Positions 14,831 through 54,006 of a DNA stretch of 64,000 nucleotides are shown in pieces; within the stretch, counting starts at the first letter, position 1; each line of letters begins with the position of its first letter. The notes beneath the pieces were generated by a model. The model had not been told where the DNA came from, ran no database searches, and was given only the letters and a program-made list of their open reading frames with translations. A program made the position numbers and the translations under genes. Source of the DNA: a virus (taxonomy: Duplodnaviria; Caudoviricetes); the IMG/VR virus record IMGVR_UViG_3300037067_005096, positions 48,084 to 112,083 of that record; one strand, 5' to 3'.

Positions 14831-14836
14831 ACTTGA

Positions 14837-14987
14837 AGTATAACATACCCGGACAGAACCAGCAACCCAGTATAATTACCGGTTTTCGTGCGTGGACGGA
14901 AGAAGCTCTTGCTATTTTTGGCGATGTCCAGGTATAATACCTGTAGCACTTTTCTCTGCCCTGAGCAGATTTGAGGTATAACCATAT
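14837..14987. promoter_or_regulatory. Divergent promoters for SNF2 helicase and primase-helicase
   Basis: Minus: TTGCTG-17-TATACT 6 nt before ATG; plus: TATAAC 5 nt before ATG; palindrome at 14867-14882. Confidence 0.7.
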
Positions 14988-27836: not shown

Positions 27837-28182
27837 TGGTGGAGGTGAGGGGAATCGAACCCCTGTCCTAAGAGTCAATCAAATAGGCTTCTACGGACGT
27901 AGCTGCTTGTCTTCTTCCCCTGATTCAGCTAAAGCAGCAACCCAGTGTTCAGGTATGTCAACCACTCGAAGAACACACAATGCCGCTTCTATGCGGCCAA
28001 TAGAAGCTCCCGCTCTTCAACAACTTCCTCAACCGGGAGCAGTCCGTCAATCTGACGGATTATCGTAGCACTGACTTTTTCACTGTTCGCTTTTCTTGTT
28101 TGGTCGATGATTTAAGAGGCCAACGACCGTCCTCTGTCCGCTACCTATTCACTTGTCCCCTCAGTCGAAACCTTTCACCCCC
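27837..28182 (-). ncRNA. ssrA: tmRNA
   Basis: 5' GGGGGTGAAAGGTTTCGAC, 3' GGGGTTCGATTCCCCTCACCTCCACCA, G3:U70-type pair, pk1, tag ORF 28090-27989 ending LLAA-stop inside a hairpin. Confidence 0.95.
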
Positions 28183-39160: not shown

Positions 39161-39568
39161 CTACGAGAACCAGAGAGGTATTTCTAGTCGAGTTGCTTCA
39201 AGCGAGTCAGACCCATGTACCAGGTTGCACGGTAAGTCACCACCGAAGTCTCCACGGATAGTCCCCGGAGCAGCATCCGCAGGGCTAGTCGCCCCAATGA
39301 TTTCCCTGACCCTGGCAATTGCGTTCTCACCTTCGATTATTACAGCAATCACCAATCCAGAGTGAAGAAACTCTACGTTTCTCCCAAAGAACGGCTTCTC
39401 CACGTGCTCTCGATAGTGAAGTTCACACAGAAACCTGGATGGATACTTAACACTTCTCATCCGTGCCACTTTGAGACCGGCTCTCTCGAAGTAGGTCAGA
39501 ATTGCTCCTACAGCGTTTCGCTTTGTAGCATCAGGTTTGAGAAGCACAAGTGTTCGTTCATCACACAC
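39161..39568 (-). CDS. ndk: Nucleoside-diphosphate kinase
   Basis: TLVLLKPDA, PGTIRGDF, NLVHGSDS. Confidence 0.95.
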   Translation of the reverse strand: MCDERTLVLLKPDATKRNAVGAILTYFERAGLKVARMRSVKYPSRFLCELHYREHVEKPFFGRNVEFLHSGLVIAVIIEGENAIARVREIIGATSPADAAPGTIRGDFGGDLPCNLVHGSDSLEATRLEIPLWFS

Positions 39569-39580
39569 AGTATCGCCCTC

Positions 39581-39697
39581 CTAGTCGGTGTAGCCTAGCT
39601 CATCGCCGCAATCCTGGCAAAGAGGCTCGCCACAATCGTTGGTGATGCTGCCATCACACGGTTCGCCACATTCAACACAGTATACCTCTTCTTCCAT
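39581..39697 (-). CDS. 38-aa acidic Cys-rich microprotein
   Basis: Read manually: GGAGGTG RBS, MEEEVYCVECGEPCDGSITNDCGEPLCQDCGDELGYTD. Confidence 0.6.
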   Translation of the reverse strand: MEEEVYCVECGEPCDGSITNDCGEPLCQDCGDELGYTD

Positions 39698-39721
39698 CGG
39701 TATATCACCTCCTCTGCTATG

Positions 39722-39795
39722 TGGTGCGTCGAGGGAGAATCGAACTCCCATTTACTGGTTAAAAGCCAGCTACTCTGCCGTTGAGTTATCGACGC
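39722..39795 (-). tRNA. tRNA-Lys(UUU)
   Basis: Cloverleaf, loop CT-TTT-AA, CCA. Confidence 0.92.
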
Positions 39796-39800
39796 TAACT

Positions 39801-39877
39801 TGGAGCCGCATAAGAGACTTGAACTCTTCCCTCGACGTTGGAAGCGTCACGTGCTCAGCCATTAACACCAATGCGGC
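39801..39877 (-). tRNA. tRNA-Gly(UCC)
   Basis: Loop CT-TCC-AA, U73, CCA. Confidence 0.9.
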
Positions 39878-39882
39878 AAATA

Positions 39883-39958
39883 TGGAGCCGGTAGCAGGCA
39901 TCGAACCCGCGACAAGAGGTTTACAAAACCCCTGCTCTACCATCTGAGCTATACCGGC
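39883..39958 (-). tRNA. tRNA-Thr(UGU)
   Basis: Loop TT-TGT-AA, CCA. Confidence 0.93.
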
Positions 39959-39962
39959 ATAT

Positions 39963-40050
39963 TGGCGGAAGATACAGGAATCGAACCTGTGCAGCCAAAA
40001 GGCCGACTTCGGTTTAGCAAACCGGTACATTACCGCTCTGTCAATCTTCC
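39963..40050 (-). tRNA. tRNA-Ser(GCU)
   Basis: Long variable arm, G73, loop TT-GCT-AA. Confidence 0.92.
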
Positions 40051-40144
40051 TGGCGGAGCGTGAAGGACTCGAACCCTCACCACGGGGTTCTCCCGTGCTC
40101 ACGGTTTTCAAGACCGGGGCAATATCCAGTTCTGCCAACGCTCC
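40051..40144 (-). tRNA. tRNA-Ser(UGA)
   Basis: Long variable arm, G73, loop CT-TGA-AA; zero spacer to Ser(GCU). Confidence 0.92.
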
Positions 40145-40148
40145 ATAC

Positions 40149-40223
40149 TGGTGGAAGCGGAGAGAGTCGAACTCTCAACCTTAACCTTGCAAAGGTTCTG
40201 CTCTCCCATTGAGCTACGCCCCC
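40149..40223 (-). tRNA. tRNA-Ala(UGC)
   Basis: G3:U70, loop TT-TGC-AA, CCA. Confidence 0.93.
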
Positions 40224-40612
40224 TTACGTTTACGAGAATCATGATGTGTTTTCTTACAACATGGTTGCAATCCATTCCACTTACTTTTATTCTTCCAGAA
40301 CTCACTTATTGGATGAAATGTTTGACAACCACAACACCATGCCGTTCCTTCAACTCCGACTTTTCTACGAGACTCTGCCAGTTTTTGCTTAGTAGCATCA
40401 GACCGCTTACTTCCCAATACGTGCATTCGAGAATGCCCGCTTCGCAATCGTACTTCCAAATTTTCTGGCCGATTGTCTCGTTTGTTCTCGTTGATATGAT
40501 GTACAAGCTCATAGGATTTTAGGCGTCTCCCTAAAATACCCTCCATTACAAGACGATGCTCGTCTCGTGTTGTTCCATCTGGCAGTTTTATACGCTTATA
40601 TGGGTATGCCAT
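40214..40612 (-). mobile_element. Free-standing HNH homing endonuclease within the tRNA array
   Basis: EHRLVM...VHHINENKRDNRPENL, C-terminal Cys cluster. Confidence 0.88.
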
Positions 40613-40622
40613 AGTAATTATC

Positions 40623-40713
40623 TGGTGCGTAGGGGTAGATTTGAACTACCGATGTTTTCCACAAGGGTACGAGTTTTACAGACTCGCTGCATCAACCACT
40701 CGCTCACCTACGC
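40623..40713 (-). tRNA. tRNA-Tyr(GUA)
   Basis: Long variable arm, loop CT-GTA-AA. Confidence 0.9.
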
Positions 40714-40717
40714 ATAT

Positions 40718-40792
40718 TGGTGGACTCGCTTCGAGTTGCACGAAGGACACCACGGGCTTCAACCGTGTGCTCTACTACTGAGCTACGAGTCC
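40718..40792 (-). tRNA. tRNA-Phe(GAA), atypical D/T loops
   Basis: Loop TT-GAA-GC; D loop AGTAGTA; T loop TGCAACT. Confidence 0.85.
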
Positions 40793-40793
40793 G

Positions 40794-40866
40794 TGGACTC
40801 GCCTGGACTCGAACCAGGAGCCAATCGGTTATGAGCCGACCGCTCTACCAATTGAGCTACAAGTCC
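40794..40866 (-). tRNA. tRNA(CAU), probably Ile2; CCA not encoded
   Basis: Loop CT-CAT-AA; G1-C72 so not initiator. Confidence 0.85.
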
Positions 40867-40872
40867 AAAAAC

Positions 40873-40948
40873 TGGTGCAGGCGGAGGGAGTTGCACTCTC
40901 ACTGACATGCTTCTAAGGCATGTGCCTCTGCTATTGGGCTACGCCTGC
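40873..40948 (-). tRNA. tRNA-Leu(UAG), short variable loop
   Basis: Loop CT-TAG-AA, A73, 76 nt, T loop TGCAACT. Confidence 0.85.
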
Positions 40949-40957
40949 ATATTATAC

Positions 40958-41033
40958 TGGCTCTGGTGGGAGGACTCGAACCTCCAACCATCCGGTTAAC
41001 AGCCGGACGCTCCGCCAGTTGAGCTACACCAGA
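40958..41033 (-). tRNA. tRNA-Asn(GUU)
   Basis: U1-A72, G73, loop CT-GTT-AA. Confidence 0.94.
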
Positions 41034-41037
41034 ATAA

Positions 41038-41113
41038 TGGTGCGGGAAGCAGGACTCGAACCTGCACATCACGAGGCTTAAACCCGTTGCCTTTGCCATT
41101 TAGCCATTCCCGC
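41038..41113 (-). tRNA. tRNA-Leu(UAA), short variable loop
   Basis: Loop TT-TAA-GC, A73, 76 nt. Confidence 0.87.
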
Positions 41114-41115
41114 AT

Positions 41116-41191
41116 TGGTGGAGACGGAAGGAGTTGCACCTTCACTGAACGGGTTTTGAAGCCGCTGACTCTGCTATTGGCCTACGTCTCC
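41116..41191 (-). tRNA. tRNA-Leu(CAA), short variable loop, C31xC39 mismatch
   Basis: Loop TT-CAA-AA; D, V and T loops identical to Leu(UAG). Confidence 0.8.
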
Positions 41192-41196
41192 ATAGG

Positions 41197-41273
41197 TGGG
41201 GCGAATGGCGGGAATCGAACCCGCGACCCCTGGGGCCACAACCCAGTGCTCTATCCGCTGAGCTACACACGCC
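41197..41273 (-). tRNA. tRNA-His(GUG)
   Basis: G-1:C73, loop TT-GTG-GC. Confidence 0.9.
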
Positions 41274-41296
41274 ACGACATTCGCCCACATTGAAAC

Positions 41297-41374
41297 TGGT
41301 AGCCCGGACGAGGCTCGAACTCGCAATCCTCCAGCCTTGAAAGGGCGGTGTTCTACCAACTGAACTACCGGGCC
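41297..41374 (-). tRNA. tRNA-Glu(UUC)
   Basis: Loop CT-TTC-AA; one extra U in the 3' anticodon-stem strand. Confidence 0.87.
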
Positions 41375-41440
41375 GCGAATGCCGGGAACAGCTAATAGTA
41401 GAAGTGAGAAAGACCTATCAACTGTTCCCGGCTCTACCGG

Positions 41441-41665
41441 TTAGCTCTTGTTGTTGACGCTGACGCCTCCCCTTATTATACCACCAACCACGATGAGAAG
41501 CCAGTATCCAGCATAAGCTACCCAGTACGTGAGTTCCTTCCCACCAAAGTAGGGAATCACCACGTTCCACAGATACATGAGGATATATGCGGCGATGAAG
41601 CTCAAAATACCTGCTACCACCGCGACCGCAATTATCGCTCCAAGAACTGCTGCGAGTGTTCTCAT
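41441..41665 (-). CDS. Small membrane protein
   Basis: Two long hydrophobic segments. Confidence 0.7.
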   Translation of the reverse strand: MRTLAAVLGAIIAVAVVAGILSFIAAYILMYLWNVVIPYFGGKELTYWVAYAGYWLLIVVGGIIRGGVSVNNKS

Positions 41666-42051
41666 TCTACCTTTACACCTCCCTTCGCACGTTGATACAG
41701 AGCTTGAAACTCTTCAACGGTATTGAAATGTCCCCAATCACGTGGTTCGGTGCAGGTAACAGTCTCCCCGCAAACATCACAGGTCACTGTATAGAATGTT
41801 GCTATGTGACCCTCCGGCCAAGTCTTTCCCAGTGCTTGGGCACACTCTGAGCAAATAGCAGCCGGGTAAGGTATCCATTCATGCTTCTTCGCATACGCTG
41901 ATAACCTCAACTCGACTTTCTCCTTGTCCTTAGAGCCAGTAATCTCTTTACAACGAGATGTGGCACGCCCATGCACCCGACGTACATAGTATGCCATACT
42001 AAATGGGTCTTGGACAAGTAGATAACGACTTCCTTCTTGGTCTACATACAT
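41662..42051 (-). CDS. Hypothetical protein with Zn-finger
   Basis: CSEC...CDVC..TEPRDWG. Confidence 0.7.
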   Translation of the reverse strand: MYVDQEGSRYLLVQDPFSMAYYVRRVHGRATSRCKEITGSKDKEKVELRLSAYAKKHEWIPYPAAICSECAQALGKTWPEGHIATFYTVTCDVCGETVTCTEPRDWGHFNTVEEFQALYQRAKGGVKVE

Positions 42052-42060
42052 GATGTCACC

Positions 42061-42441
42061 TCAGAACTTCTTCAGTTCATCGTGCAGACCGGACTCGAAG
42101 AATGCGCTATCCGGGCTAAGCCCCTGCACTAGGCCCGCTTGGTAGCGGCGAATCGCTGCTTCCATTTCCAGGGGCATTACCACTCCGGTTAGTGGCTCCG
42201 CATTCGGCGGAACATCATCTGCCAGAGCTTCAGCCAACGCTACGACCGAATCACCGGTCTCTGCAATAGCCTCTGCCAACTCCTCATGAATCTGCTCTTC
42301 CGTAGGTTCAGGCTCACTGATGGATGCCTTGACATGAACCACAGATGCTTCTGGATTCACTGGAGCCATCGGAGTCTCTTCCTCATCCAGTCCCGGAATC
42401 GCAACAGGAGTCTTCTCATCTTTCGGCTTGCGTCCGAACAT
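42061..42441 (-). CDS. Acidic hypothetical protein
   Basis: AAGGAGG RBS. Confidence 0.65.
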   Translation of the reverse strand: MFGRKPKDEKTPVAIPGLDEEETPMAPVNPEASVVHVKASISEPEPTEEQIHEELAEAIAETGDSVVALAEALADDVPPNAEPLTGVVMPLEMEAAIRRYQAGLVQGLSPDSAFFESGLHDELKKF

Positions 42442-42456
42442 ACCAGCACTACCTCC

Positions 42457-43383
42457 TTATAGGGTATTTAGGAACTCCGTGACGCTATCCCAGTTGCCTG
42501 ACGCCTTCTCCAAGAAGCTCACAACTTCCTGTTCGGCAGCGACACGTGCATCCCATTTGTCTTCGTCTCGATACCGAAGCACCCAGTCCTCGATTAGAGC
42601 ACTGATGACGGACGGTTCGAGAGCATCCAACTCCCAGCATTCATACCCGAACTCACTGACGTAAACACTCGACCGGGTATCTTGTAGCTTGGTCGGATTC
42701 GGTGGAGGAGAATACTCCTCAATTTGGTCATAGTTGAGAGCTATCCGATGGAATATCGGGAAAGCCCCAAACAGATTCAGCCGTTCTTCGATGTCGCGGC
42801 TCATATCCTTTCCTGACGGGTCATGGTCACCCAGGTGAATTATCACTGTGGGCGGGCCGTCCTTGAACCTTTGTCGGCGGGTGATACGCTGTGCAGCCAG
42901 CCACATCTCTGTTTGACTCACATAGCCCCGGCACGAGAAGAAGTTCACATCCAATGGACGACAAGCATTCTCAACAACGCCTACCAAAGCATCTTTCTCT
43001 ACCCACACTTCAACCCGGAACTCTTGCCCGGCCCATTTGTCATACTGGAAGCTCTGAGCACAAGCAGAAACAATGTCTCCAGGGCTATTCCAATGCGAAT
43101 TGCCCCGCAAGTTCCGAGTCCTATCCTCAATAGCATTCCAGTCAATCAGGCCACACAGACGCCCGTTAGAAATGGTCTCTCCGAGCTTCTTATACTCACG
43201 CTCGTTGTTTGCAATATAAGCTCTAGCGACCATCTGATAGTAAACCTGACGTAGTGTAAGTTCATAGCCCTGCGCCCGGTACTGGTCAATGACCTCATTC
43301 ACCAGTGCTATGATTGCCAGCGTTGCCTTTTGGAACTTGATGTCCCGGTATCGAATCTTAGGCATCTCGATGTATTTCCTCAT
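42457..43383 (-). CDS. Topo VI-A/Spo11-like TOPRIM protein
   Basis: LTLRQVYYQ, VWVEKDAL, RGY, LGDHDPSG. Confidence 0.78.
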   Translation of the reverse strand: MRKYIEMPKIRYRDIKFQKATLAIIALVNEVIDQYRAQGYELTLRQVYYQMVARAYIANNEREYKKLGETISNGRLCGLIDWNAIEDRTRNLRGNSHWNSPGDIVSACAQSFQYDKWAGQEFRVEVWVEKDALVGVVENACRPLDVNFFSCRGYVSQTEMWLAAQRITRRQRFKDGPPTVIIHLGDHDPSGKDMSRDIEERLNLFGAFPIFHRIALNYDQIEEYSPPPNPTKLQDTRSSVYVSEFGYECWELDALEPSVISALIEDWVLRYRDEDKWDARVAAEQEVVSFLEKASGNWDSVTEFLNTL

Positions 43384-43642
43384 CCAAGTGTTCGACGGCT
43401 GCCACAGCTACAGCAGCGACCTGGATAAGCTCCTTTCTCAGTGGTATGAGTGCTGCCTTATGAGCATCACTGCGCTCAGGAATCCTCCGAGCTTCAAGCA
43501 ATGCTTGGCACGCCTCACCAAACTCCTCTCCCAGAACTGTCATCCAAACTGGGAAATCGTGACGTTGGACACCCCAAAGTTCGACTTGATAGTCACGCTC
43601 TTCAGCGACTTCTTTGAGAATGTCTTCGTTCCTTATGCACAT
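43358..43642 (-). CDS. MazG-like nucleotide pyrophosphohydrolase
   Basis: LGEEFGEACQA...RKELIQVAAVAVA; start at MCIRNED. Confidence 0.8.
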   Translation of the reverse strand: MCIRNEDILKEVAEERDYQVELWGVQRHDFPVWMTVLGEEFGEACQALLEARRIPERSDAHKAALIPLRKELIQVAAVAVAAVEHLDEEIHRDA

Positions 43643-44360
43643 CAACGTATCTCCGTTTCGCTGTTTGATGGTGAGGTTTCTGCCGAATAGCATGCAGTAA
43701 TTCATCTGCAAGCAGGTAATCCTCGTTCCCCACAGCTTCCACATACCGAATGGCATCCTCACAATCATCTGGATGCACTGGATGAGTCATAAGCAGACTT
43801 GCCCGTATTTGGTGGTCAAACACCCGGTCGTCTGCTTCTAGTAGTCGAAGGTCGCCCTGCGCAAGCACTGTCCACGCTGCCTCAAGCAAGTCATCTACTA
43901 CATGGTCAGGTTCACATTCACAACGTTTGCCTTCTATCAGCAGCGTCCGACATCCGGCTGCTTTACCAGCGAGAATATCTGTCTCACTGTCACCAATCAT
44001 AAAGGACTCTGCTAGGTCTATGTCTAGGTCGATAGCTGCCTGCAGAAGCATACCTGGCTCCGGCTTTCGACACGAACACCCCTCCGAAGCCAGGTGCTTG
44101 CAGTAATAAAACGCCTCTATCTCCCCATTCACTGTTGCTGAAATGGCATCCTGCATTCGACACAAATCAGTTTCAGCAATGAGACCTTTCGCAATTCCTT
44201 GCTGGTTAGATACTACCACAATGATAAAGCCTGCCGCTCTCAACCGATGAATGGCTTCTACCACACAAGGGTAGACCATCAACTCGTGTAAGTTCTTCAC
44301 GTAGTCGGGCCGGTCGATATTGATGACACCATCTCGGTCAAGGAAGACGGCTCTATTCAT
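43602..44360 (-). CDS. gmhB: D,D-heptose-1,7-bisphosphate phosphatase (HAD IIIA) with C-terminal extension
   Basis: FLDRDGVIN, SNQQG, CKH...CSCRKPEPGM, IGDSETD. Confidence 0.9.
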   Translation of the reverse strand: MNRAVFLDRDGVINIDRPDYVKNLHELMVYPCVVEAIHRLRAAGFIIVVVSNQQGIAKGLIAETDLCRMQDAISATVNGEIEAFYYCKHLASEGCSCRKPEPGMLLQAAIDLDIDLAESFMIGDSETDILAGKAAGCRTLLIEGKRCECEPDHVVDDLLEAAWTVLAQGDLRLLEADDRVFDHQIRASLLMTHPVHPDDCEDAIRYVEAVGNEDYLLADELLHAIRQKPHHQTAKRRYVDVHKERRHSQRSR

Positions 44361-45258
44361 GGCCTAGTTGAGCCTCCACAAGCTGCTGCTTGTACCACTC
44401 CGGGAATCCAGCAATGATGCCCCGCTGAATCTTCGGCCAGGCCCACTTGAAAAGCTGCTCCATTATCATGTCCTTCTCTTCCTTGAGAACATCCTGACCA
44501 ACTTCTTTGAGCAACTTGCCGATGTCTCGCGGGTCGTGCTCCAGTTCCCCAGCTTCTTCAAGATGCTGTATAGCTTTCTGCCAACGAGCATCAGTCTTTA
44601 GTTGAGTAATCAAGTTCTGCACCACATCCGCAGAGCCAGGGTTGCCCATCTTCCACTCAGTCCGATGCTTCTCTTTGAACGCCTCAGACACGAACTTTGC
44701 CATCAGGCATTTCTTGTCTGGTGCGTAGACATCATAACCTATGGGCTTGATAACCACACCCTCAATCTTCACACCACCAAGCACTGAGTCTCGGTCGAGA
44801 AGTGAATTGAACAGGTCGATGTCGAGCTTGACAGCCGTTGCCAGAAGCGGAACGACTTCCAGTCCAAGCCTTGCCGCTTCAGCCGCTTTCTCCTCGTATG
44901 ACAGGTAAGATTCCTCACCAGTGTTGACATCGAAGAGAATGATATGGCTGGTCGGAATACGCTCATAGCAGAGAGCATTGTGTTTCGGCTTCGAGAGATA
45001 TTCCCCACGATATGTCCAGCCATCATGCAAGTCAAGCTGCGCTACAGCTTCCACACCGGCAATGAACATCTTCTCTGGAGCATCCACTACCATCTCTTTG
45101 CCCTTTGAACGCACTCTCAACGTTCCATTGAATCTGCCAAAGCTAAACTGGCTGCCATCTACTTTCTCTTCGATATTGACAGCACACTGCAGTAGCGGTT
45201 CCAATGCTCTGTGACCCAGGTTGTACACCGAAGGATAACTATGCCAACTTGTTATCAT
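44353..45258 (-). CDS. ATP-dependent RNA ligase (Rnl2-like)
   Basis: EEKVDGSQF motif I, RGEY, LFDV, EGVVIK, AKFVSEAFKE. Confidence 0.85.
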   Translation of the reverse strand: MITSWHSYPSVYNLGHRALEPLLQCAVNIEEKVDGSQFSFGRFNGTLRVRSKGKEMVVDAPEKMFIAGVEAVAQLDLHDGWTYRGEYLSKPKHNALCYERIPTSHIILFDVNTGEESYLSYEEKAAEAARLGLEVVPLLATAVKLDIDLFNSLLDRDSVLGGVKIEGVVIKPIGYDVYAPDKKCLMAKFVSEAFKEKHRTEWKMGNPGSADVVQNLITQLKTDARWQKAIQHLEEAGELEHDPRDIGKLLKEVGQDVLKEEKDMIMEQLFKWAWPKIQRGIIAGFPEWYKQQLVEAQLGHE

Positions 45259-45668
45259 TTCTTCAACTCCTTGAGTTTTTGTGCTATACTTACAGACTCT
45301 TCCCGTGGTGCTCCCCTACACTCTTGTATCATCAAGTCGGCTTGTTCAGCTTTCTCAATAAGAAACGGCCTGATAAGCAAAAGAAAAGCCAAGATGTCTT
45401 GTTTAGCTCCAAAACCCCAATTCCATGTATCTTTATTCCCAGTTACTTTTGGCTCAGTTTGATGTTTTACTATATGCAAACTACCACCAAACTGTTGTTG
45501 TAATTGCTCTAAAACTGGTAGATACGAATTGGTGATATGAACTGAACGTATCCAACAAGGACTTTTATACCCACTCTTGTACCGTGAGCATTTACTACCC
45601 TTATTTCGGTACATCCCTATGCTTCCCTCACCATCAAAGAAACCTGCTACATATTCTAATGACAGCAT
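45255..45668 (-). mobile_element. Free-standing LAGLIDADG homing endonuclease
   Basis: YVAGFFDGEGSI; stop overlaps RNA ligase start. Confidence 0.88.
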
Positions 45669-45722
45669 AATCCTTCACCTCTACCCCAGTATATCTCACT
45701 ATGGGTATTTCATGCTGTCTTC

Positions 45723-45932
45723 AAAAAAAGCATATAGAAGTCCGGGTCAAGGCTTTCGTGAGAGTATAGGTTGCTTGACACGCTACTCTCCATCTACGGC
45801 AGCCGGACTTCTATATACTGGGGTCTGGTCAACCACACGCTTCCCACCAGGTCAAGCCTGCCTAAGCCTTGTCCGTTGCGACCCCAAATAAGAACTCGAC
45901 TATAGCCGGTAGCTGCACTCGACTTCCCACCA
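45723..45932 (-). ncRNA. Candidate structured small RNA
   Basis: Promoter TTGACC-17-TATACT upstream; two hairpin domains; 16-bp stem followed by U7; no credible ORF. Confidence 0.5.
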
Positions 45933-45974
45933 CATCAGTATACCGCACCTAGCAATCCAGGTCAACTGGTACTA

Positions 45975-46298
45975 TTACTGGGTTTTCCGCATTTCAGCGA
46001 GCATATCTTCTTTCTCTTGCTCAAACTTCTTTCGGTCTATGCCGAAAAACTCATACAGCAACTCCAGCAGATTCGGATTGGTAGGATAAAGCACACCCTC
46101 ACACATCCCACAGTGCCGCTTGTAGTCCTCGTGTTCTTCCAAGTCGATATAGCACTCATCAGTGTGTTCATGATACTTGGCAAGATGAATGTCCTTCTCT
46201 TGCTGCAGCCACTCGAAGAACTCACCACATGCTTGTGACTTCTCCTGGATTGCCACTACCTTGTCATGCTCCGGGTATTGACTGCTCTGCGATGGCAT
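45975..46298 (-). CDS. Hypothetical protein
   Basis: GGAGG RBS; YPEHDK..SQACGEFFEWL. Confidence 0.7.
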   Translation of the reverse strand: MPSQSSQYPEHDKVVAIQEKSQACGEFFEWLQQEKDIHLAKYHEHTDECYIDLEEHEDYKRHCGMCEGVLYPTNPNLLELLYEFFGIDRKKFEQEKEDMLAEMRKTQ

Positions 46299-46515
46299 CT
46301 CTTACCTCCGTATGCTGCTTGTAAGGCTTACCCCGAAGCCCGGCTTTGAGTGCATCACGAACATCTCTGGGTGATGCACCTTGCTGTCTCATTTTGTAGC
46401 ATAACAACCCTTCAGCCGTGCCACACGATGAACAGATATGAGTCTTATTGTCGGCCCGGCTGATTGCCGGGTAACCCTTGATAGGGAATGTGCATATCGG
46501 ACACTTCTCAGCCAT
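46264..46515 (-). CDS. Zn-ribbon hypothetical protein
   Basis: CPIC..YPAISRADN..ICSSCG. Confidence 0.72.
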   Translation of the reverse strand: MAEKCPICTFPIKGYPAISRADNKTHICSSCGTAEGLLCYKMRQQGASPRDVRDALKAGLRGKPYKQHTEVRDAIAEQSIPGA

Positions 46516-46749
46516 CTATTTGCCCTCCATACAATTCAGTAGGTCACAAGTCTTGGTCAAGGTCTCTATCTGGCTATTCACTGTGCCACAGAGACCCTGC
46601 AGAGCTTCTTCCGGTGTCTTGCCACTACCCTCTGCAATGACGAATCCGCCATCTTTGATTACCTGTGCAAAACATTCGCCCTGCTTCTCATAGAATTTGA
46701 CGTGCATCTTATTTCCTTTCGGTTTTGGAGCCAGGGGCAACAAAAACAT
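46516..46749 (-). CDS. Small hypothetical protein (likely start MHVKF)
   Basis: Operon-filling ORF. Confidence 0.55.
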   Translation of the reverse strand: MFLLPLAPKPKGNKMHVKFYEKQGECFAQVIKDGGFVIAEGSGKTPEEALQGLCGTVNSQIETLTKTCDLLNCMEGK

Positions 46750-46921
46750 CTCTCAAATCCTTTCCTACAATACGAATCTGACACGGCTTCAATACTCGAC
46801 TCTCTCCAGCATCACTTGTAAAATCATATAAGCCGTCAGACCGTTTGGTTGCATAGCCCCAATGTTGAAATCCCCGTGCATTACTAGCACAGTTATATGA
46901 TTGTCCAATTTGGGTTTTCAT
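46709..46921 (-). CDS. Hypothetical protein
   Basis: ATGA overlap with upstream gene. Confidence 0.55.
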   Translation of the reverse strand: MKTQIGQSYNCASNARGFQHWGYATKRSDGLYDFTSDAGESRVLKPCQIRIVGKDLRDVFVAPGSKTERK

Positions 46922-47301
46922 TTCTTCACCTTCGCACAGTCACTTCCACAGTACACCTGGGGATTGCCTCCCGACCGTCGTGCTGCTTCCAGTGCTCGTT
47001 TTGATGAATACGGTATCCAGATGGTCTTCCCACACCGTGAACAGTGCTCCTCGTACAAGTTCTTCGGCTGAAAGCCTATCCAGTACCACCACAAACCTTC
47101 TTTGCAGTGGTGTCTCCTACCGACACGAAATCCAACCTTGTCAATGAGGTCTGCCATCCAATCCGGCAATACCATCAGCGTGCCGTTCTCTTCGCCAGCA
47201 TGCTTCATTGTTTCCAACTTGGTCAGAATGCGGTCTACCATGCGCTCCTTAGCTCTCATACGCTGAAGCCTGGGATGAGACCATCTGTGATACCGTATCA
47301 T
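46918..47301 (-). CDS. Hypothetical protein with C-terminal Zn-finger
   Basis: CSRCG...YCGSDC; first gene after the palindrome promoter at 47364. Confidence 0.65.
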   Translation of the reverse strand: MIRYHRWSHPRLQRMRAKERMVDRILTKLETMKHAGEENGTLMVLPDWMADLIDKVGFRVGRRHHCKEGLWWYWIGFQPKNLYEEHCSRCGKTIWIPYSSKRALEAARRSGGNPQVYCGSDCAKVKK

Positions 47302-47372
47302 TCAGTGTGCGTTCCTTTCTGATTATCTATCTAAGTATACCGCACAATGTTGTGTCTTGTCTACTGGTATTT

Positions 47373-47864
47373 CTACCCGTTATAGTGCAGATTGTACGTG
47401 ATGACCACACTCTCACCTTCCAACAATGTCTGGTCAAGAGTAAATGACATCTCTTTTCCATCGAGTGTTGGAATCACTGGCTGACCATCTACTTTCGCAG
47501 AGCCAGCCACAAAATCAAAAAGAGCGGGGATTACCACCTTGTACTTCTTCGGCTTAATTGGCTGTATGACCGTGATAGTCGCTGTAGCCGATGCACTGCG
47601 GTCGGTTCCATATTCGTCTGACCACAGTATCTCAATGACCAGCGGAATAGGGTCACGGGTATGCAGAATGTTACTGAGTGTCGTCTGGATAGTGGTAATC
47701 TTAGTCACACTATCAACTTGACTAGCTGTCACAGTCACCTGCAACCCGTCTGCCGCTTTCACCGAACATGACAATACCAGCAAAACAATGCACAGAAGTG
47801 CAATCTTCACAAAGCTGGCTCTAAAACTCCGTTGTACGAACTGATACCGCATAGTGTTACCCAA
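47373..47864 (-). CDS. Secreted beta-rich protein (likely start ~47810)
   Basis: Signal peptide KIALLCIVLLVLSCSVKA. Confidence 0.65.
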   Translation of the reverse strand: MGNTMRYQFVQRSFRASFVKIALLCIVLLVLSCSVKAADGLQVTVTASQVDSVTKITTIQTTLSNILHTRDPIPLVIEILWSDEYGTDRSASATATITVIQPIKPKKYKVVIPALFDFVAGSAKVDGQPVIPTLDGKEMSFTLDQTLLEGESVVITYNLHYNG

Positions 47865-49270
47865 TCCCCCACGTTAGGTCGTGACCCACTGAATACCCGA
47901 AGAGCATCTGGAGACCCGTCACTAATGTCATAGTAACCAACCCCTCTATCCGTGACTCGACCCCAGACCCGCACTCGCAGTCCAAACGAAAGAGATTCTT
48001 GTGCTGTCTTATTTGTCATACCAAGCGGGTCTGGCACAGTTCCACCACTGTCGAGCAATAGATATTTTGGATAGATGACCAAATCACCACTTTCAGAGGC
48101 TATCTGGCCGATTACTGTTGTCACAGTTCCCGGTGTAAGGCTTTTATCACCGAGACGAATACCATTGGCCCTATTCGGCTCCTCGATATATGAGAAGTCT
48201 CCGAAATCAGCCGTGACCGGTTTGTCCCGAAGTTCTACCCAGTCACCAGCAGTCTTTGTATTCACCGGAACGGATGCACCTTCATAGCATCCCCGGTCAA
48301 TAGTAGTTCCCAGGATTCTTGGCATCCCTAGCAAATCGACGCTGGTAACACACGTGTTGATGCCCGTGCCGATACACGAAGAACCATATTGTAACCGATA
48401 TTGAAGTTCGTCAGACACCAGAAACAGTGGGTCAGCTTCGACGTTTTCATCCAGACCGATGACCTGCCAACTGGTAGGATAGAATGGCGTGTCTCCATTG
48501 TTGTAGAACGTGTTGTAAGAGACATCTCCACCCCCACCAGAGCCGGACACATAGATAGCTCCACCGAGTGTAGCCTGATTGTTTGCGATGATGTTGTTCT
48601 CAATGTAAGGTGCTGCGAAAGCAATAGCAATACCACCGCCCTTATGCGTGTCCTCGTTGTGATTGCCTACTATCGTGTTGTTGTAGACCAGCGGAGCACC
48701 ATTACCAATATACATGCCTGCTCCGTGGTTGTTTGCAATCAAATTGCTGCACACGATGGAGTTTCCCTGGAAGAGGAATATAGCTCCAGTGCCAGCCGGA
48801 TTTGTCCATCCATTGATGACACGGTTTGCCACAATGGTAGATGTGACCTCACTGTATATACCACGCCCCCAGATAGCTTCAGTAACCGTATTATAGGACA
48901 CTGTGGGGCTTCCACCAGTGCAGCCAATACCAATGCGACAGTTAGTGACCGTGAAGTGTGACATCGTAGCCGTGGTCGTTATCTCGACCGCGAAAGCTCC
49001 TGACATGTTTCCGTCGATGACTGTCGTGTCATCTCCAAGCAGAGTGATAGCCTTGTTCACCACCAGTGCCCCCACATACGTATGTGGCCCGGCAACTTGT
49101 ACAATATCATTCGTCGTTGCTGCAGTGATTCCTGCAGAGATGGTGTGGTAAGCATGTTCCCAGTCGTTACCAGGCCCATCATACGGCGAATCCCATTTGA
49201 CGTACACAGTGCCCGCATAGCAAGGCACAAGCAATGAAAGTACTACCATTACCAACAAAAACGTTCTCAT
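47807..49270 (-). CDS. Secreted right-handed beta-helix (pectin-lyase-like) protein with C-terminal OB-like domain
   Basis: Signal peptide, NNTIVGN/NNIIANN repeats, ADPLF, IDRGCYE. Confidence 0.8.
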   Translation of the reverse strand: MRTFLLVMVVLSLLVPCYAGTVYVKWDSPYDGPGNDWEHAYHTISAGITAATTNDIVQVAGPHTYVGALVVNKAITLLGDDTTVIDGNMSGAFAVEITTTATMSHFTVTNCRIGIGCTGGSPTVSYNTVTEAIWGRGIYSEVTSTIVANRVINGWTNPAGTGAIFLFQGNSIVCSNLIANNHGAGMYIGNGAPLVYNNTIVGNHNEDTHKGGGIAIAFAAPYIENNIIANNQATLGGAIYVSGSGGGGDVSYNTFYNNGDTPFYPTSWQVIGLDENVEADPLFLVSDELQYRLQYGSSCIGTGINTCVTSVDLLGMPRILGTTIDRGCYEGASVPVNTKTAGDWVELRDKPVTADFGDFSYIEEPNRANGIRLGDKSLTPGTVTTVIGQIASESGDLVIYPKYLLLDSGGTVPDPLGMTNKTAQESLSFGLRVRVWGRVTDRGVGYYDISDGSPDALRVFSGSRPNVGDWVTLCGISSYNGVLEPAL

Positions 49271-50262
49271 CGTGTCTCCTTTTGGTGGTATTCACACCAC
49301 CGACGATTGTAATCAACGCACACATCCAGACAGTTCTTCTGGCAGATAGGGTCTTTGTGGACATCGTGTGTAAGGAACCACTCACAACGTTCCTGCCTCA
49401 CCCGTCCAGAGTCATTTCGACCAATCGGTTTGTCTGGTGCTTCACGCAGATGTATGATACAAGGGTAGTGATATTCCCCTGTAGCAGCAATGTCATCCAA
49501 GACCAATGGACATCCGTGTGGGTCTGATTCACAGATTCCCCGCACTGGTCTACCTCGATGAGCATTCTCAAGCCGATATTCCAGTATTGGATGTTGCCCC
49601 GGTTCACCAAAGTATTGAATGTTCTGCAGCGGGATATTAGTCTGTGCCGCAGAAATCACTCGAATGTCGGCAACGCCCAAATCGTGAGCATATTGTATGA
49701 TGTCAGGAAGCTGGTCGGCATTCTCATCAGTTACAACGATGCCAACAGTCACATACGTGAGCTTCGAGAGATGCCTGATGTTCCGAGTCACAGTGTTCCA
49801 GATAACCTCGTCACCGGCTCCCATAACTGCTCCACCACTGGCACAGCAGGCATCCAACGATATAGAGAAATCGTTGACGCCAGCATCTATAAGGTCTAAG
49901 TAGAACGCCTGACTAGCAGACCCATTGGTAGAGATAGCTATGTGTTCAACACCACCTTCTACAGCCATGTCCACAAGGTCGAACAGTCCGGCATACAAAG
50001 TAGGTTCCCCACCGGAGAATCTGACATTCCGCAAGCCCTCATCAATCCAACTTTGCAGCACAAACTTCGCTTGGTCAAGCGGTATGTCTGGCCCACCAAC
50101 ATTGCGGCAGTAAGGACAGTTGAAGTTACACCGACCACCAAGCAACAGTTCACAACGATGCAGTCTGCTTCTCACAGACGCAGTGGCAGCCCTCTCATCG
50201 GAGAGCGTATAGAACCCGATGTTTTCCAGTTTCATAAACAGCCCCCGTAGTATTCTCTCCAA
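49267..50262 (-). CDS. Radical SAM protein
   Basis: CNFNCPYC, FSGGEPT, STNG, C-terminal Cys cluster; start probably MKLENIG. Confidence 0.9.
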   Translation of the reverse strand: MERILRGLFMKLENIGFYTLSDERAATASVRSRLHRCELLLGGRCNFNCPYCRNVGGPDIPLDQAKFVLQSWIDEGLRNVRFSGGEPTLYAGLFDLVDMAVEGGVEHIAISTNGSASQAFYLDLIDAGVNDFSISLDACCASGGAVMGAGDEVIWNTVTRNIRHLSKLTYVTVGIVVTDENADQLPDIIQYAHDLGVADIRVISAAQTNIPLQNIQYFGEPGQHPILEYRLENAHRGRPVRGICESDPHGCPLVLDDIAATGEYHYPCIIHLREAPDKPIGRNDSGRVRQERCEWFLTHDVHKDPICQKNCLDVCVDYNRRWCEYHQKETR

Positions 50263-50432
50263 CGCTCCTTCCAGTACTCCTCTCGTTCATCATAGCAGTC
50301 CTGACAAAGCGTAGACCAGTTGTCTTCTTCGGTCTCATATTGCGTGCAGTGGCGTCTGCATTTGGGGTATACGAAGAACCTCCGACAGCAGTCACAGAAG
50401 CCAAGCAGCTTTTTGATGAAGGTCAACATCAT
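50232..50432 (-). CDS. Small Cys-rich protein
   Basis: CDCC...LCQDC. Confidence 0.55.
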   Translation of the reverse strand: MMLTFIKKLLGFCDCCRRFFVYPKCRRHCTQYETEEDNWSTLCQDCYDEREEYWKERWREYYGGCL

Positions 50433-51001
50433 TGCATCGGAAGGTTGATGTCGTTCGGCCAGTCTTCCGGCCTGACAGTAATAACGATGTATTGCAGGTA
50501 CTTGTTGAACACCTTGTGCGGGCTGTAATAGTCAGTAACAGACCGTTTGAACTCGTTATAGTATTCCTCACCACAACTGGCCTTGCTAGAATGACTCAAG
50601 TAAGCCTTTGTGATAGCGTTGCCATCTACCATAAATGAGACAGTAGGAGCCTTGACAGTCTCATCCAACTTCACCCGGACTCTGTTCAACGGCAGCGTGG
50701 TGATAGTGTAGGTGTTGTTCTCAATCTCCCACGCGAACCGAATGTTGGTGACGACATACTGCTTCTCTCCGGTGTACTTACCGTCCACACCACCCATGAA
50801 AAGGAACCATCCGCCAGAGAGTTCGCCTTTCGCTGGCTCTGTTTTGACTTCTGGATTACAGAACATCTTACGAAGCTGATGCTGTGACCCATAGAATGCC
50901 TGAACCTCAGAAGCCGGGTCAGTCCCATAACGACCACAACCTGACAATGCCAATACTACCAATCCAAGAACTAGATACCGCATATAGGTCTCCTTTCTCA
51001 T
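50429..51001 (-). CDS. Lipoprotein
   Basis: Lipobox LSGC after a hydrophobic leader. Confidence 0.75.
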   Translation of the reverse strand: MRKETYMRYLVLGLVVLALSGCGRYGTDPASEVQAFYGSQHQLRKMFCNPEVKTEPAKGELSGGWFLFMGGVDGKYTGEKQYVVTNIRFAWEIENNTYTITTLPLNRVRVKLDETVKAPTVSFMVDGNAITKAYLSHSSKASCGEEYYNEFKRSVTDYYSPHKVFNKYLQYIVITVRPEDWPNDINLPMQ

Positions 51002-51087
51002 TACTTATCTAAGTGTAACACCCATTTTGGCAGAAGTCTACTGGTATAATTACCAGTTCTACTTGCCATTATAGGTTCGATTGCTGT

Positions 51088-51285
51088 CTAGTTACGAGCT
51101 TTCTTTCCGAAGAGAAAATTTCTGAACGATGGTGAGGATGCTGGTAGCCCTCCATAGTGACTACGCTTATCCGGTGTTTGGGCATCTTGAGTAGGCCCAC
51201 AGCAGTCACGACAAATCATCTCGATGCCTAACCATTCAACTCCACCCGTGTTCTTTAGCTCAGCCCCACAACGTTTGCAGCGCAT
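51088..51285 (-). CDS. Small Zn-ribbon protein
   Basis: CKRCG...ICRDC. Confidence 0.55.
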   Translation of the reverse strand: MRCKRCGAELKNTGGVEWLGIEMICRDCCGPTQDAQTPDKRSHYGGLPASSPSFRNFLFGKKARN

Positions 51286-51289
51286 TTGG

Positions 51290-51988
51290 TCACCTCTCCC
51301 TCAAGATGGCTCGCCAGGCCCCTTGATAGCCTTCATGTGTGCCAACATCATATCGAGTGACATTCGATAGCACTACTGCTTGCTTGATGCACTTGTTCAG
51401 TGCAGTCGGCCAGTCATCACCCTGAGAGAAGTAGTCGAATATGACTGGGGGCAGAATGTAGCGTCCTGCGATAGCATAGAGACTCAGTGGGTTATCCGGC
51501 TTCTCCACCAGACCCCCACTCTCAAAGATGCCATTCTCCGGGTTGGTCAGCGGGATAATGACACCATACTTCTGGACATCTTCAGCTTCATGCTGCACAA
51601 GCACACAGTTCTTGAGTCTCATCATTGTGCGTATAGGCAGCACGGACACTATACCATCCGGCAGCAATACCGAGTCTGCCAGCACCAGCATGAAGTCATC
51701 AGAAATGACTGACTGGACACATTGCAGAGCATTAACCGGGCCGTTGGGTTCCTTCTGTACCCAAAAACTGATGCCCACATGTGGTATTGACTTGATAGCC
51801 GTTTGAAACAACCACTTGTGTTCCGGGTTGCAAACTATGACTATCTCCTCAACACCAGCTTGAACTATCTCATCTAAGATGTGCTGTATCACCGGAGTCT
51901 TACCCAGTGGAAACAGAGCCTTTGGTATTGCCCGGCTCAGGGACTCCACACGAGTAGTTTTACCGGCTGCCAGAATCACTGCTTTCAT
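51290..51988 (-). CDS. Sugar-1-phosphate nucleotidyltransferase (GalU/RmlA/HddC superfamily)
   Basis: AVILAAGKTTR...PK, QKEPNG, LAD, VEKP, GRYIL. Confidence 0.88.
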   Translation of the reverse strand: MKAVILAAGKTTRVESLSRAIPKALFPLGKTPVIQHILDEIVQAGVEEIVIVCNPEHKWLFQTAIKSIPHVGISFWVQKEPNGPVNALQCVQSVISDDFMLVLADSVLLPDGIVSVLPIRTMMRLKNCVLVQHEAEDVQKYGVIIPLTNPENGIFESGGLVEKPDNPLSLYAIAGRYILPPVIFDYFSQGDDWPTALNKCIKQAVVLSNVTRYDVGTHEGYQGAWRAILRER

Positions 51989-52424
51989 TCAAAGCCTCCC
52001 ATGACAGCATCGCCTCAACTCGCTCACGAGTAAGGAAATGCAAGTTCATCTTGTCTTTGTTTCGCTCATACCAGGGCTTAGCATTCCAGCCCTTTCCTCG
52101 TGCCTTTGCCATTGCCCGCCAGTCTGCTACCATCTCCAAAACATCAGCGTCCGGCATCTGCAACGGCTCATTGTCATCACCAATCCAGAACTGCCAATGG
52201 TGCGAATTGTGATGCTTGTGATGCAGCCAGGCTACAGCAAAATTGGCCTTGACCTTATCCTTGTGGCCGTAGAACGTCTCTACGTAGCTTGACCATTCCT
52301 CTTCGCTGAACTTACTCATATCGTGGACAATGCCCCGCCAGGTGATACCCAATCTTCGGCATTCCTGGAACACCAACCACTTATGCAGCAACACGTACTT
52401 GAGGTATTCCCAGTGTTTCTTCAT
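51960..52424 (-). CDS. HD-like protein (DUF5662-type)
   Basis: HDMSKF, AWLHHKHHNSHHWQ, EMVADWRA. Confidence 0.75.
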   Translation of the reverse strand: MKKHWEYLKYVLLHKWLVFQECRRLGITWRGIVHDMSKFSEEEWSSYVETFYGHKDKVKANFAVAWLHHKHHNSHHWQFWIGDDNEPLQMPDADVLEMVADWRAMAKARGKGWNAKPWYERNKDKMNLHFLTRERVEAMLSWEALNESSDSGSR

Positions 52425-52621
52425 TATACCCCTCTCAAATAGATATGTTCTGTGGCTCTACCGCAGCTTTCACACGTAACAGTTCCAGTGTCCACGTTGT
52501 AGGCAATTAAGTCCCCAACTCTAATCTCTTCTCCGCACTCCTTGCAGTAGAAATAGTATTTTGCTTTGAGCCAACGAATAGGAGTATCGTAGGCCCCATC
52601 ACCAAATCTTCGTTTACCCAT
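52424..52621 (-). CDS. Small Zn-finger protein
   Basis: AAGGAG RBS after tRNA-Asp; CKECG..GD...CESC. Confidence 0.65.
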   Translation of the reverse strand: MGKRRFGDGAYDTPIRWLKAKYYFYCKECGEEIRVGDLIAYNVDTGTVTCESCGRATEHIYLRGV

Positions 52622-52635
52622 ATTACTCCTTTCTT

Positions 52636-52711
52636 TGGCGGGGCCAGGGGGATTTGAACCCCCGACCCTCTGCTCGACAGGCAGACGCTCTAACCACTGA
52701 GCTATGACCCC
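52636..52711 (-). tRNA. tRNA-Asp(GUC)
   Basis: Loop CT-GTC-GA, G73, CCA. Confidence 0.93.
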
Positions 52712-53196
52712 ATACGTTCTTTCATCCACGGCTCCAGCACAAACCTGTCACCAGGAACAAAACCTTCTTCACGCTGACTGATGAACCGCCATTTCTCTGC
52801 TTCCGGCCAGTCCTTTCGGATAGCATCCTGAGCATCTTCGTCATTGGCTGCAGAAACTACAGCACATAAAATGGCATTGTCTTCACCATCGTAACCACTG
52901 CACCACCATCCAAGTATCTGCTCATTTGGCGGAAATGTCAACGGTCGATAGTCGTCTCCAGGTTGAACCCAGCTTATCCAGTATCGGTGCATAGTTGCTC
53001 CTTCATATACTCGTGAGCCATCAGACAGCACACGATGAGTTTTCAATGGACACCAATCCTTATGCTTCCAGAAAGCCATCCACATCCCACAGCCCCGGTC
53101 TGTCCATTCTCCCTGGCACAACCAGCAATGCCAGTTGCCGGAAAGCAGCTTGCGGAAGAGTTTACGAATCATTGGCCTACCTTTCTCGGAGGCCAT
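52702..53196 (-). CDS. Hypothetical protein (strong internal start at 52992, MHRYWISW)
   Basis: GAAGGAG RBS; stop lies inside tRNA-Asp. Confidence 0.7.
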   Translation of the reverse strand: MASEKGRPMIRKLFRKLLSGNWHCWLCQGEWTDRGCGMWMAFWKHKDWCPLKTHRVLSDGSRVYEGATMHRYWISWVQPGDDYRPLTFPPNEQILGWWCSGYDGEDNAILCAVVSAANDEDAQDAIRKDWPEAEKWRFISQREEGFVPGDRFVLEPWMKERMGS

Positions 53197-53396
53197 GCCA
53201 CAGAAGACACGCTCTTTCTGTTGATTATCCTCTTAGCATGGTCAAGTAAAGGAGTGGCCCCTTTGGTAAAGTCATTGCAGGCAAGCTGCAACTCATCTAC
53301 GATATTAGCAAGCTCAGTGATGAGCTTATCCTTAGCAGCTATGATTCTGTTGTGCTCTTTGACCGTGATAGTCGGCTCAGGCTTTCTCATAGACAT
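53169..53396 (-). CDS. Hypothetical protein
   Basis: Operon-filling ORF. Confidence 0.5.
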   Translation of the reverse strand: MSMRKPEPTITVKEHNRIIAAKDKLITELANIVDELQLACNDFTKGATPLLDHAKRIINRKSVSSVAWPPRKVGQ

Positions 53397-53655
53397 CTCC
53401 GTTTTCAGCTATCTTCTCATCCTCGTACGGAGCCATCACCCGCCGATAGAACTCATCAGAAGCATCGTTCATTGCTGCCCGAATAGCCGACATCACCTTG
53501 TAGCTGCGTCCGTATGTCTGAACCAACTCGCTGGCAATGGTAGAAATCACGTAGTTGAACTCCCCAGTGATGTTGTCCAACGTTATGTGGTTGGCGACAT
53601 CTATCACCGGTTCATTATCGAGAACTCTTCGTTGTGGTTGCTTGATGTAAGGCAT
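53377..53655 (-). CDS. Conserved phage hypothetical protein
   Basis: MPYIKQ..R, GEFNY, EFYRR..APYEDEKI.ENGDVY. Confidence 0.8.
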   Translation of the reverse strand: MPYIKQPQRRVLDNEPVIDVANHITLDNITGEFNYVISTIASELVQTYGRSYKVMSAIRAAMNDASDEFYRRVMAPYEDEKIAENGDVYEKA

Positions 53656-54006
53656 CTAATCATCCTCCTCTATAAGAGCCGTTATCCGAACACTTCTCCG
53701 CTGCATGCCCAACGTCACAAATCGAAGATTGTACTCTCGGTATACAACAGTAGAAGTAGAAAGCCTTTGGTGTGTTTCTAGCTTGGTCTCAGGTAAGACT
53801 ATACCCAGTCCTACTGTGTGAGCATCACACCATCCACCATACCAAGCATGTCTAAATCTGGCACGGAGAAATTCTCCACTACCGCCAACACACTTATAAG
53901 GATTACTCTCATCTGTCTCACCATGACGAGCAGCAGTAAAACCCTTATTATAGGCCCCTAACTCCGCCTTATTCTTGTAGCAGTGCTCAATTTGCAGCGA
54001 CATCAC
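53656..54006 (-). CDS. Ribosome-modulation-factor (Rmf)-like protein
   Basis: AYNKGFTAARHG...NPY...AWYGGWCDA matches Rmf pattern G(Y/F)xAG...PY...WxxGW. Confidence 0.6.
   Translation of the reverse strand: MMSLQIEHCYKNKAELGAYNKGFTAARHGETDESNPYKCVGGSGEFLRARFRHAWYGGWCDAHTVGLGIVLPETKLETHQRLSTSTVVYREYNLRFVTLGMQRRSVRITALIEEDD

Follow-up and report, generated by a model that had tools for sequence, protein, structure and literature searches.

The homing endonuclease gene segB of phage T4 is co-transcribed with transfer RNA (tRNA) genes, and Brok-Volchanskaya et al. (2008) suggested that a cut between its last codon and its stop codon during maturation of the downstream tRNA-Arg may lower its expression; processing of the primary transcript has likewise been proposed to lower the expression of endonucleases from the tRNA region of phage T5 (PMC2330249). 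We analyzed a 64,000-nucleotide (nt) stretch of Caudoviricetes DNA (the window), which constitutes the final 64 kb of the 112,083-bp single-contig phage genome IMGVR_UViG_3300037067_005096 (49% G+C) and contains 2 protein genes with stop codons located inside the tRNA genes that follow them. One encodes an HNH endonuclease and overlaps tRNA-Ala, whereas the other, denoted ORF164, has no known function and overlaps tRNA-Asp; in both cases, the stop is a TAG occupying positions 8 to 10 of the tRNA.

The HNH gene resembles segB in being a putative homing endonuclease gene that is probably co-transcribed with tRNAs and is placed directly upstream of one of them (tRNA-Arg in T4). It differs in that the segB stop, a TAA located 5 nt before position +1 of tRNA-Arg, lies outside the tRNA, in that SegB belongs to the GIY-YIG family, and in that homing by segB has been shown experimentally. 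Genuine overlaps are found in T5, where the genome annotation (NC_005859) includes open reading frames (ORFs) that stop inside downstream tRNAs, the ends of which are confirmed by ARAGORN: the HNH gene hegC stops at positions 12 to 14 of tRNA-Ser, the HNH gene hegD at positions 21 to 23 of a tRNA-Gln pseudogene, T5.069 at positions 22 to 24 of tRNA-Asn, and T5.057 at positions 4 to 6 of tRNA-Met. As with hegC and hegD, the HNH gene of the window is free-standing, lies among clustered phage tRNA genes of the same strand, and has its stop in the 5′ part of the next tRNA. Unlike in T5, the stops are at positions 8 to 10, the HNH proteins of T5 being only distantly related to that of the window, and the window phage carries a transfer-messenger RNA (tmRNA), whereas none is annotated in the T5 region examined.

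A cellular precedent is provided by the Escherichia coli secG-leuU transcript, in which a single RNase P cut at position +1 of the tRNA frees the secG messenger RNA (mRNA), which is then degraded exonucleolytically with a half-life of less than 30 s (PMC2241853). The window junctions share with it a protein gene followed by a tRNA on the same strand, with no terminator-like site in between. They differ in that secG, a cellular rather than a phage gene, has its stop 14 nt upstream of the tRNA, so that the freed mRNA keeps it. Coding sequences also abut or overlap tRNA genes in animal mitochondria, where polyadenylation turns partial stops (U or UA) into UAA; this tRNA punctuation, in which mRNA 3′ ends are generated by excision of the flanking tRNAs, was reportedly set out by Ojala, Montoya and Attardi in 1981. 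Unlike in mitochondria, addition of A to the cut ends expected here (..AA and ..AU) would yield AAA and AUA, neither of which is a stop, and bacterial non-stop rescue would apply. The layout is common in phage tRNA clusters, annotated in T5 and discussed for T4, and the locus described below reveals no new kind of mechanism. The phage itself has no described close relative, given that the closest DNA polymerase in the phage collection is only approximately 30% identical, and DNA searches of that collection with the HNH locus and the ORF164 locus returned no match.

Stop codons inside tRNA-Ala and tRNA-Asp

The genome encodes 18 tRNAs supported by both ARAGORN and Rfam, 1 more candidate recognized by ARAGORN only, and the tmRNA. 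The HNH gene (40214–40612, minus strand; 132 amino acids [aa], start MAYPYK), delineated from the ORF list, the sequence, and Pfam and PHROG matches, is the sole interruption of a 15-tRNA array (39722–41374, minus strand; ARAGORN and Rfam). It is a free-standing gene on the same strand as the array, with the 3′ end of tRNA-Tyr(GUA) (40623–40713, minus strand; ARAGORN) lying 10 nt ahead of its ATG and tRNA-Ala(UGC) (40149–40223, minus strand) overlapping its 3′ end. The frame reads ...CGT AAA CGT AAG GGG GCG TAG, with the TAG (40216–40214) at positions 8 to 10 of tRNA-Ala. ORF164 (52702–53196, minus strand), defined from the ORF list, the sequence and its homologs, reads ...GAA CGT ATG GGG TCA TAG, and its TAG (52704–52702) occupies positions 8 to 10 of tRNA-Asp(GUC) (52636–52711, minus strand). 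Both stops had been described in a preliminary description of the window and are borne out here: ARAGORN and Rfam RF00005 concur on the 5′ ends of the 2 tRNAs (tRNA-Ala, 63.7 bits with an identical 5′ end; tRNA-Asp, 74.6 bits), and the tRNA-Asp cloverleaf is the minimum-energy fold in its precursor context.

The 2 junctions are built alike. Each ORF shares its strand with the downstream tRNA and overlaps it by 10 nt (40223–40214 and 52711–52702), with the first base of the tRNA (+1, a G) serving as the third base of a codon, so that the tRNA contributes 2 residues (Gly-Ala in the HNH protein and Gly-Ser in ORF164) and the stop. Neither sequence contains an in-frame stop ahead of the tRNA, and a consensus scan, the only terminator search applied, detected no minus-strand terminator-like site anywhere in 39400–41900, which takes in the whole 15-tRNA array, or in 52200–53700, and so none between the ORFs and their tRNAs. 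There are 5 same-strand ORF-to-tRNA junctions in the genome, 3 of which overlap the downstream tRNA: 2 stop at positions 8 to 10 and 1 at positions 48 to 50, the remaining 2 stopping upstream, 7 nt before tRNA-Pro and 66 nt before tRNA-Glu. Two of 5 junctions at positions 8 to 10 is not clearly above the phage background (p of approximately 0.08 against the IMG/VR contigs surveyed below, by a hand-calculated binomial).

The HNH protein scores 36 bits with Pfam HNH_3 (E = 5e-9; cut-off, 24.8 bits) and matches 11 PHROG HNH families. Its homolog P0025 (80% identity), which supports the MAYPYK start, has no downstream tRNA and ends on a stop of its own 3 codons earlier (...SRQK*, compared with ...SRKR-KGA* in the window). 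In the syntenic contigs that carry P0025, from samples SRR15532677, ERZ27227667 and SRR6436070, the gene order is HNH, a 55-nt spacer, a small ORF, NDK and a NAGPA-domain gene, with no tRNA between HNH and the small ORF, whereas in the window 6 further tRNAs separate the HNH gene from the small ORF, NDK and the NAGPA gene. A small Cys-rich ORF located ahead of the NDK gene (39581–39751, minus strand) measures 56 aa from its first ATG, compared with the 38 aa called in relatives; its start falls within tRNA-Lys or just past it, and the long form would cover the 3′ 30 nt of that tRNA. Two further relatives (L478 and L479) are 100% identical to the window in the HNH region. An HNH-free allele was also sought by matching the exact tRNA-Ala sequence against viral contigs, with no hit.

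The 10-nt spacer between tRNA-Tyr and the HNH gene contains no Shine-Dalgarno-like sequence. A promoter-like site (40617–40645, minus strand; TTCAAA, 17 nt, GATAAT) extends from the T arm of tRNA-Tyr through its 3′ end into the first spacer bases; its −10 box ends 4 nt ahead of the HNH ATG and would yield a nearly leaderless HNH message, although such sites were no commoner than in shuffled sequences. Fold prediction for the HNH/tRNA-Ala precursor (40146–40283, minus strand) has the 3′ acceptor strand of the tRNA pairing with GUGGAAUGGA, HNH codons located approximately 60 nt upstream, displacing the weak, G-U-containing 5′ acceptor strand. This prediction was not significant (z = −1.2; ensemble frequency 0.01) and is not relied on here.

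ORF164 is 164 aa long from the first ATG and 156 aa from the likely start at M9 (position 53172), which is indicated by its relatives and by the Protein Atlas record. No Pfam or PHROG family matched it, and the Protein Atlas search gave no function. An alignment with its 23 homologs contains 19 invariant columns. Homologs compared at this end (45% to 65% identity) mostly terminate 0 to 4 residues past the invariant Arg161, and a few extend up to approximately 20 residues further; in the window protein, Arg161 is followed by MGS. No tRNA lies downstream of the homolog in the 3 such loci examined (L001, L306 and L307). Given the separate stop of P0025 and the clustering of ORF164 homolog ends near Arg161, the tRNA has in both window genes replaced the original stop, exactly at or close to the natural end of the protein.

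Two metagenome contigs, L305 (ENA) and L310 (JGI), carry an ORF164 homolog with 92% to 93% identity that ends TTG GGA GTG TAG on positions 8 to 10 of a different tRNA, tRNA-Trp(CCA). In L305, a tRNA-Asp comes after tRNA-Trp, and the sequenced part of this tRNA-Asp (to the contig end) is identical to that of the window, whereas in L310 tRNA-Trp precedes another HNH gene, behind which lies a homolog of the gene that comes next in the window (the "KKHWEY" gene). The slot between ORF164 and the KKHWEY gene accordingly holds tRNA-Asp and a zinc-ribbon-like ORF in the window (52424–52711), tRNA-Trp and tRNA-Asp in L305 (581–722), and tRNA-Trp and the HNH gene in L310 (2962–3541). The zinc-ribbon-like ORF (52424–52624, minus strand; 66 aa), identified from the sequence with weak Pfam zinc-ribbon matches, starts 11 nt past tRNA-Asp and is preceded by a strong AGGAG ribosome-binding site. 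Judging from these 3 arrangements, the slot is a hot spot for the exchange of tRNA and nuclease cargo, and the left junction of ORF164 at tRNA +1 holds its frame despite the change of tRNA (Trp versus Asp). The kept frame could reflect recombination between similar tRNA 5′ ends, which would preserve it automatically, or selection, and the 2 sequences cannot decide between these possibilities.

The third overlap involves a second HNH gene, which lies outside the window (genome positions 14745–15116; L476 946–1317, minus strand) and encodes a 123-aa protein matching PHROG HNH (E = 1e-22). It reads 50 nt into tRNA-Gln(UUG) (L476 920–995) and stops on a TGA at positions 48 to 50, so that the tRNA encodes its final 16 residues. 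The PHROG alignments extend to residues 103 to 108 and tRNA-Gln begins at residue 108; homology therefore ends at or within approximately 5 residues of tRNA +1. Positions 8 to 10 of this tRNA are TGG, and the gene enters in another frame. Given the stop at positions 48 to 50, reading into tRNAs in this genome is not specific to U8-A9-G10. ARAGORN also reported, at genome positions 14311–14389 (L476 512–590, minus strand), a tRNA with a four-base anticodon (ggat), which falls below the Rfam tRNA threshold and is doubtful.

The tmRNA mentioned in the preliminary description proved genuine. The gene (27837–28182, minus strand) matches Rfam RF00023 over its full length (model positions 1–374; 127.6 bits) and has a resume codon followed by a tag ORF with a hydrophobic, Ala-rich, degron-type end. 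Read from the resume codon in the Rfam alignment, the tag is ANSEKVSATIIRQIDGLLPVEEVVEERELLLAA, followed by TAG (frame 28090–27992); with 33 residues it is unusually long, although its end, ...ERELLLAA, has the usual LAA. The tag printed by ARAGORN, in a different place and frame, was dropped in favor of the Rfam-alignment frame. Phage-encoded tmRNAs are already known from the mycobacteriophage Bxz1 group and from Bacillus phage G (PMC4131195). The window phage resembles these in having an ssrA-like gene of its own and differs from them in that its DNA has no relative among the records of the phage collection. We know of no demonstrated link between any phage tmRNA and genes that overlap tRNAs.

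ORF-to-tRNA junctions in viral contigs

The frequency of such junctions was assessed in 307 viral-contig loci from IMG/VR, collected through HNH homologs and 2 tRNA motifs and containing 1105 tRNAs identified by ARAGORN. The ORFs considered were at least 100 aa long, on the same strand as the tRNA and overlapping no other tRNA, in contigs with G+C contents of up to 55%. Tight junctions, defined as those with a stop within 50 nt upstream of tRNA +1 or inside the tRNA, numbered 100: the stop was upstream in 73 and inside the tRNA in 27. The upstream stops form a sharp peak at −10 to −4 (36 of the 73; loci L002–L304), that is, they end 1 to 7 nt before the tRNA in 36 of the 100 tight junctions. 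The stops inside tRNAs are at position 8 in 10 of the 27 cases, one of which is a probable duplicate, and the other 17 are spread over positions 4 to 55, with small clusters at 13, 21 and 35–36.

The preliminary description had anticipated that, if the arrangement were a device, the frame ending at positions 8 to 10 would be enriched across viral tRNAs. No clear enrichment was found: the 27 overlaps divide into 12 in the 8–10 frame and 8 and 7 in the other two, a result that goes essentially against that expectation. The preliminary description had also associated the layout with a toxic homing nuclease. Genes of the HNH, GIY-YIG, endonuclease VII or His-Me type (Pfam) accounted for 8 of 26 overlapping ORFs, compared with 6 of 30 ORFs stopping 4 to 10 nt upstream, a difference that is not significant by our own estimate, several of the Pfam matches being below the Pfam cut-off. 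Homing-type nucleases are common beside phage tRNAs in general and not specifically in the overlapping arrangement. A special status of U8-A9-G10, in view also of the second HNH gene stopping at positions 48 to 50, finds no support.

The survey also brought to light 4 genes in viral contigs unrelated to the window, located 4 to 9 nt upstream of tRNA genes, which encode an RF-1-domain protein and 3 PF04308 RNaseH-like proteins (L095 2851–3222, minus strand; L095 4776–5240; L149 6489–6938; L198 133–612). The RF-1-domain protein resembles a peptidyl-tRNA hydrolase or ribosome-rescue factor, and genes for translation rescue and RNA processing may travel with phage tRNA arrays.

Origin of the overlaps and consequences for expression

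On balance, the overlaps probably arose incidentally, through the extreme packing of phage tRNA/mRNA units that are transcribed together and through the turnover of cassettes within them. A protein gene would have been pushed flush against base +1 of a tRNA, losing its own stop, and would then end on the first in-frame stop triplet within the tRNA, here the conserved U8-A9-G10, at a cost of 2 extra residues. The origin of the junctions is accounted for most economically by compaction together with cassette turnover, the conserved TAG being the stop available at the lowest cost.

Several points weigh against this account. The survey is small, and in place of gene calls it used crude ORFs, defined by a length of at least 100 aa and the longest start. 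Of all positions inside tRNAs, position 8 holds the stop most often, with 9 to 10 stops observed compared with approximately 5 expected under a random frame, given that a stop triplet occupies positions 8 to 10 in 59% of the first 591 tRNAs (p of approximately 0.03 to 0.07, a hand estimate). The excess is at most mild and would also be expected if short overlaps were better tolerated, or selected. Finally, the ORF164 junction is in the same frame with 2 different tRNAs, which might mean that the arrangement has been selected rather than passively inherited.

Whatever their origin, the junctions would have consequences for expression. RNase P cuts tRNA precursors at +1, and a transcript processed in this way loses the last 2 sense codons and the stop; processed HNH and ORF164 transcripts would therefore become non-stop mRNAs. 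For each transcript, 5′ maturation of the tRNA and full-length translation would be mutually exclusive. The cut would leave an mRNA ending ...CGU AA (HNH) or ...CGU AU (ORF164), with neither a stop nor a protective 3′ hairpin, and such an mRNA would be degraded fast. Ribosomes reaching the cut end would be rescued by tmRNA, that of the host or that of the phage, and the product would be tagged. Conversely, a ribosome terminating at positions 8 to 10 would cover or unfold the acceptor and D stems, so that translation and tRNA maturation would compete. Taken together, these events should keep the upstream gene weakly expressed, in line with what has been proposed for T4 segB and for endonucleases of the T5 tRNA region. 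This consequence, from the RNase P cut to the stop-less mRNA, is plausible and has published precedent. Of the mechanism put forward in the preliminary description, the conversion of mRNA to a non-stop message by tRNA maturation thus holds up in its logic, which fits RNase P biochemistry and the secG-leuU case, whereas its elevation to a special limiter device draws no support from the frames or the nuclease counts.

Were the arrangement nevertheless an evolved limiter, the stop would be kept inside the tRNA so that maturation yields a non-stop mRNA, the product of which is tagged, perhaps by the phage tmRNA, and degraded, holding a toxic nuclease at a very low level. We regard this as unlikely. 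It would accommodate the presence, in a single genome, of 2 HNH genes and 1 other gene that read into tRNAs, a full-length tmRNA with a tag ending LLLAA, an HNH start that lacks a Shine-Dalgarno sequence, as fits a low-level gene, the in-frame junction of ORF164 with tRNA-Trp and tRNA-Asp alike, and the mild excess of stops at position 8, and the idea has already been raised for T4 segB and T5 (PMC2330249). Set against these are the 12/8/7 distribution of frames among the 27 overlaps, the lack of a significant excess of nuclease genes among overlapping ORFs (8/26 versus 6/30), the fact that ORF164 is not a nuclease, and the retention of its own stop by P0025. Moreover, secG mRNA is destroyed after the RNase P cut despite a stop 14 nt upstream (PMC2241853), and a stop inside the tRNA is therefore not needed for a limiting effect. 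An evolved limiter is possible, if improbable, and is required by no result obtained here.

Insertion of a homing cassette, in which a nuclease gene enters a tRNA gene together with a replacement tRNA 5′ end and the overlap marks where the cassette meets the rebuilt tRNA, is very unlikely. HNH genes do recur beside tRNAs at these loci, and that of L310 directly follows tRNA-Trp. However, a search upstream of both HNH genes detected no tRNA 5′ stump or duplicate, only imperfect repeats of 10 to 17 nt at chance level, and on this negative result the replacement-end cassette was rejected; in addition, the gap between tRNA-Tyr and the HNH start measures only 10 nt, and ORF164, which is not a nuclease, has the same junction. 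Most improbable, and largely refuted, is an artefact, with translation of the ORFs not reaching these ends or the 5′ ends of the tRNAs wrongly placed, leaving no true overlap: although the HNH protein is called from an internal start in the protein database (110 aa, P0024) and ORF164 starts at M9 in its Atlas record, this doubt touches the starts and not the ends, 2 tRNA finders independently place +1 at the same base, no in-frame stop occurs earlier, and both proteins are conserved up to the junction.

Packing and cassette turnover thus remain the preferred account of the origin of the overlaps. A broader possibility, which we consider rather remote, is that 5′ maturation of tRNAs acts as a routine built-in switch in phages with large tRNA sets, the phage tmRNA clearing the non-stop messages, and that a single system doses homing nucleases and other cargo. 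Full-length protein would then come only from the unprocessed precursor, every processed transcript being non-stop, and, if this were true, the tRNA junction and the phage tmRNA with its long, LAA-ending tag would form a single functional dose-setting system.

The junctions also bear on genome annotation. At approximately one-quarter of the tight junctions in viral contigs, the ORF runs into the tRNA, and rules forbidding overlap between coding sequences and tRNAs will therefore truncate or miss real genes. In the literature searched, we found no direct test of a limit imposed by tRNA processing on T4 segB or the T5 endonucleases, from which the idea stems. With 3 junctions in one genome and a phage tmRNA, the locus described here is a clean natural case and could be used to test whether tRNA processing limits the expression of genes embedded in tRNA clusters.

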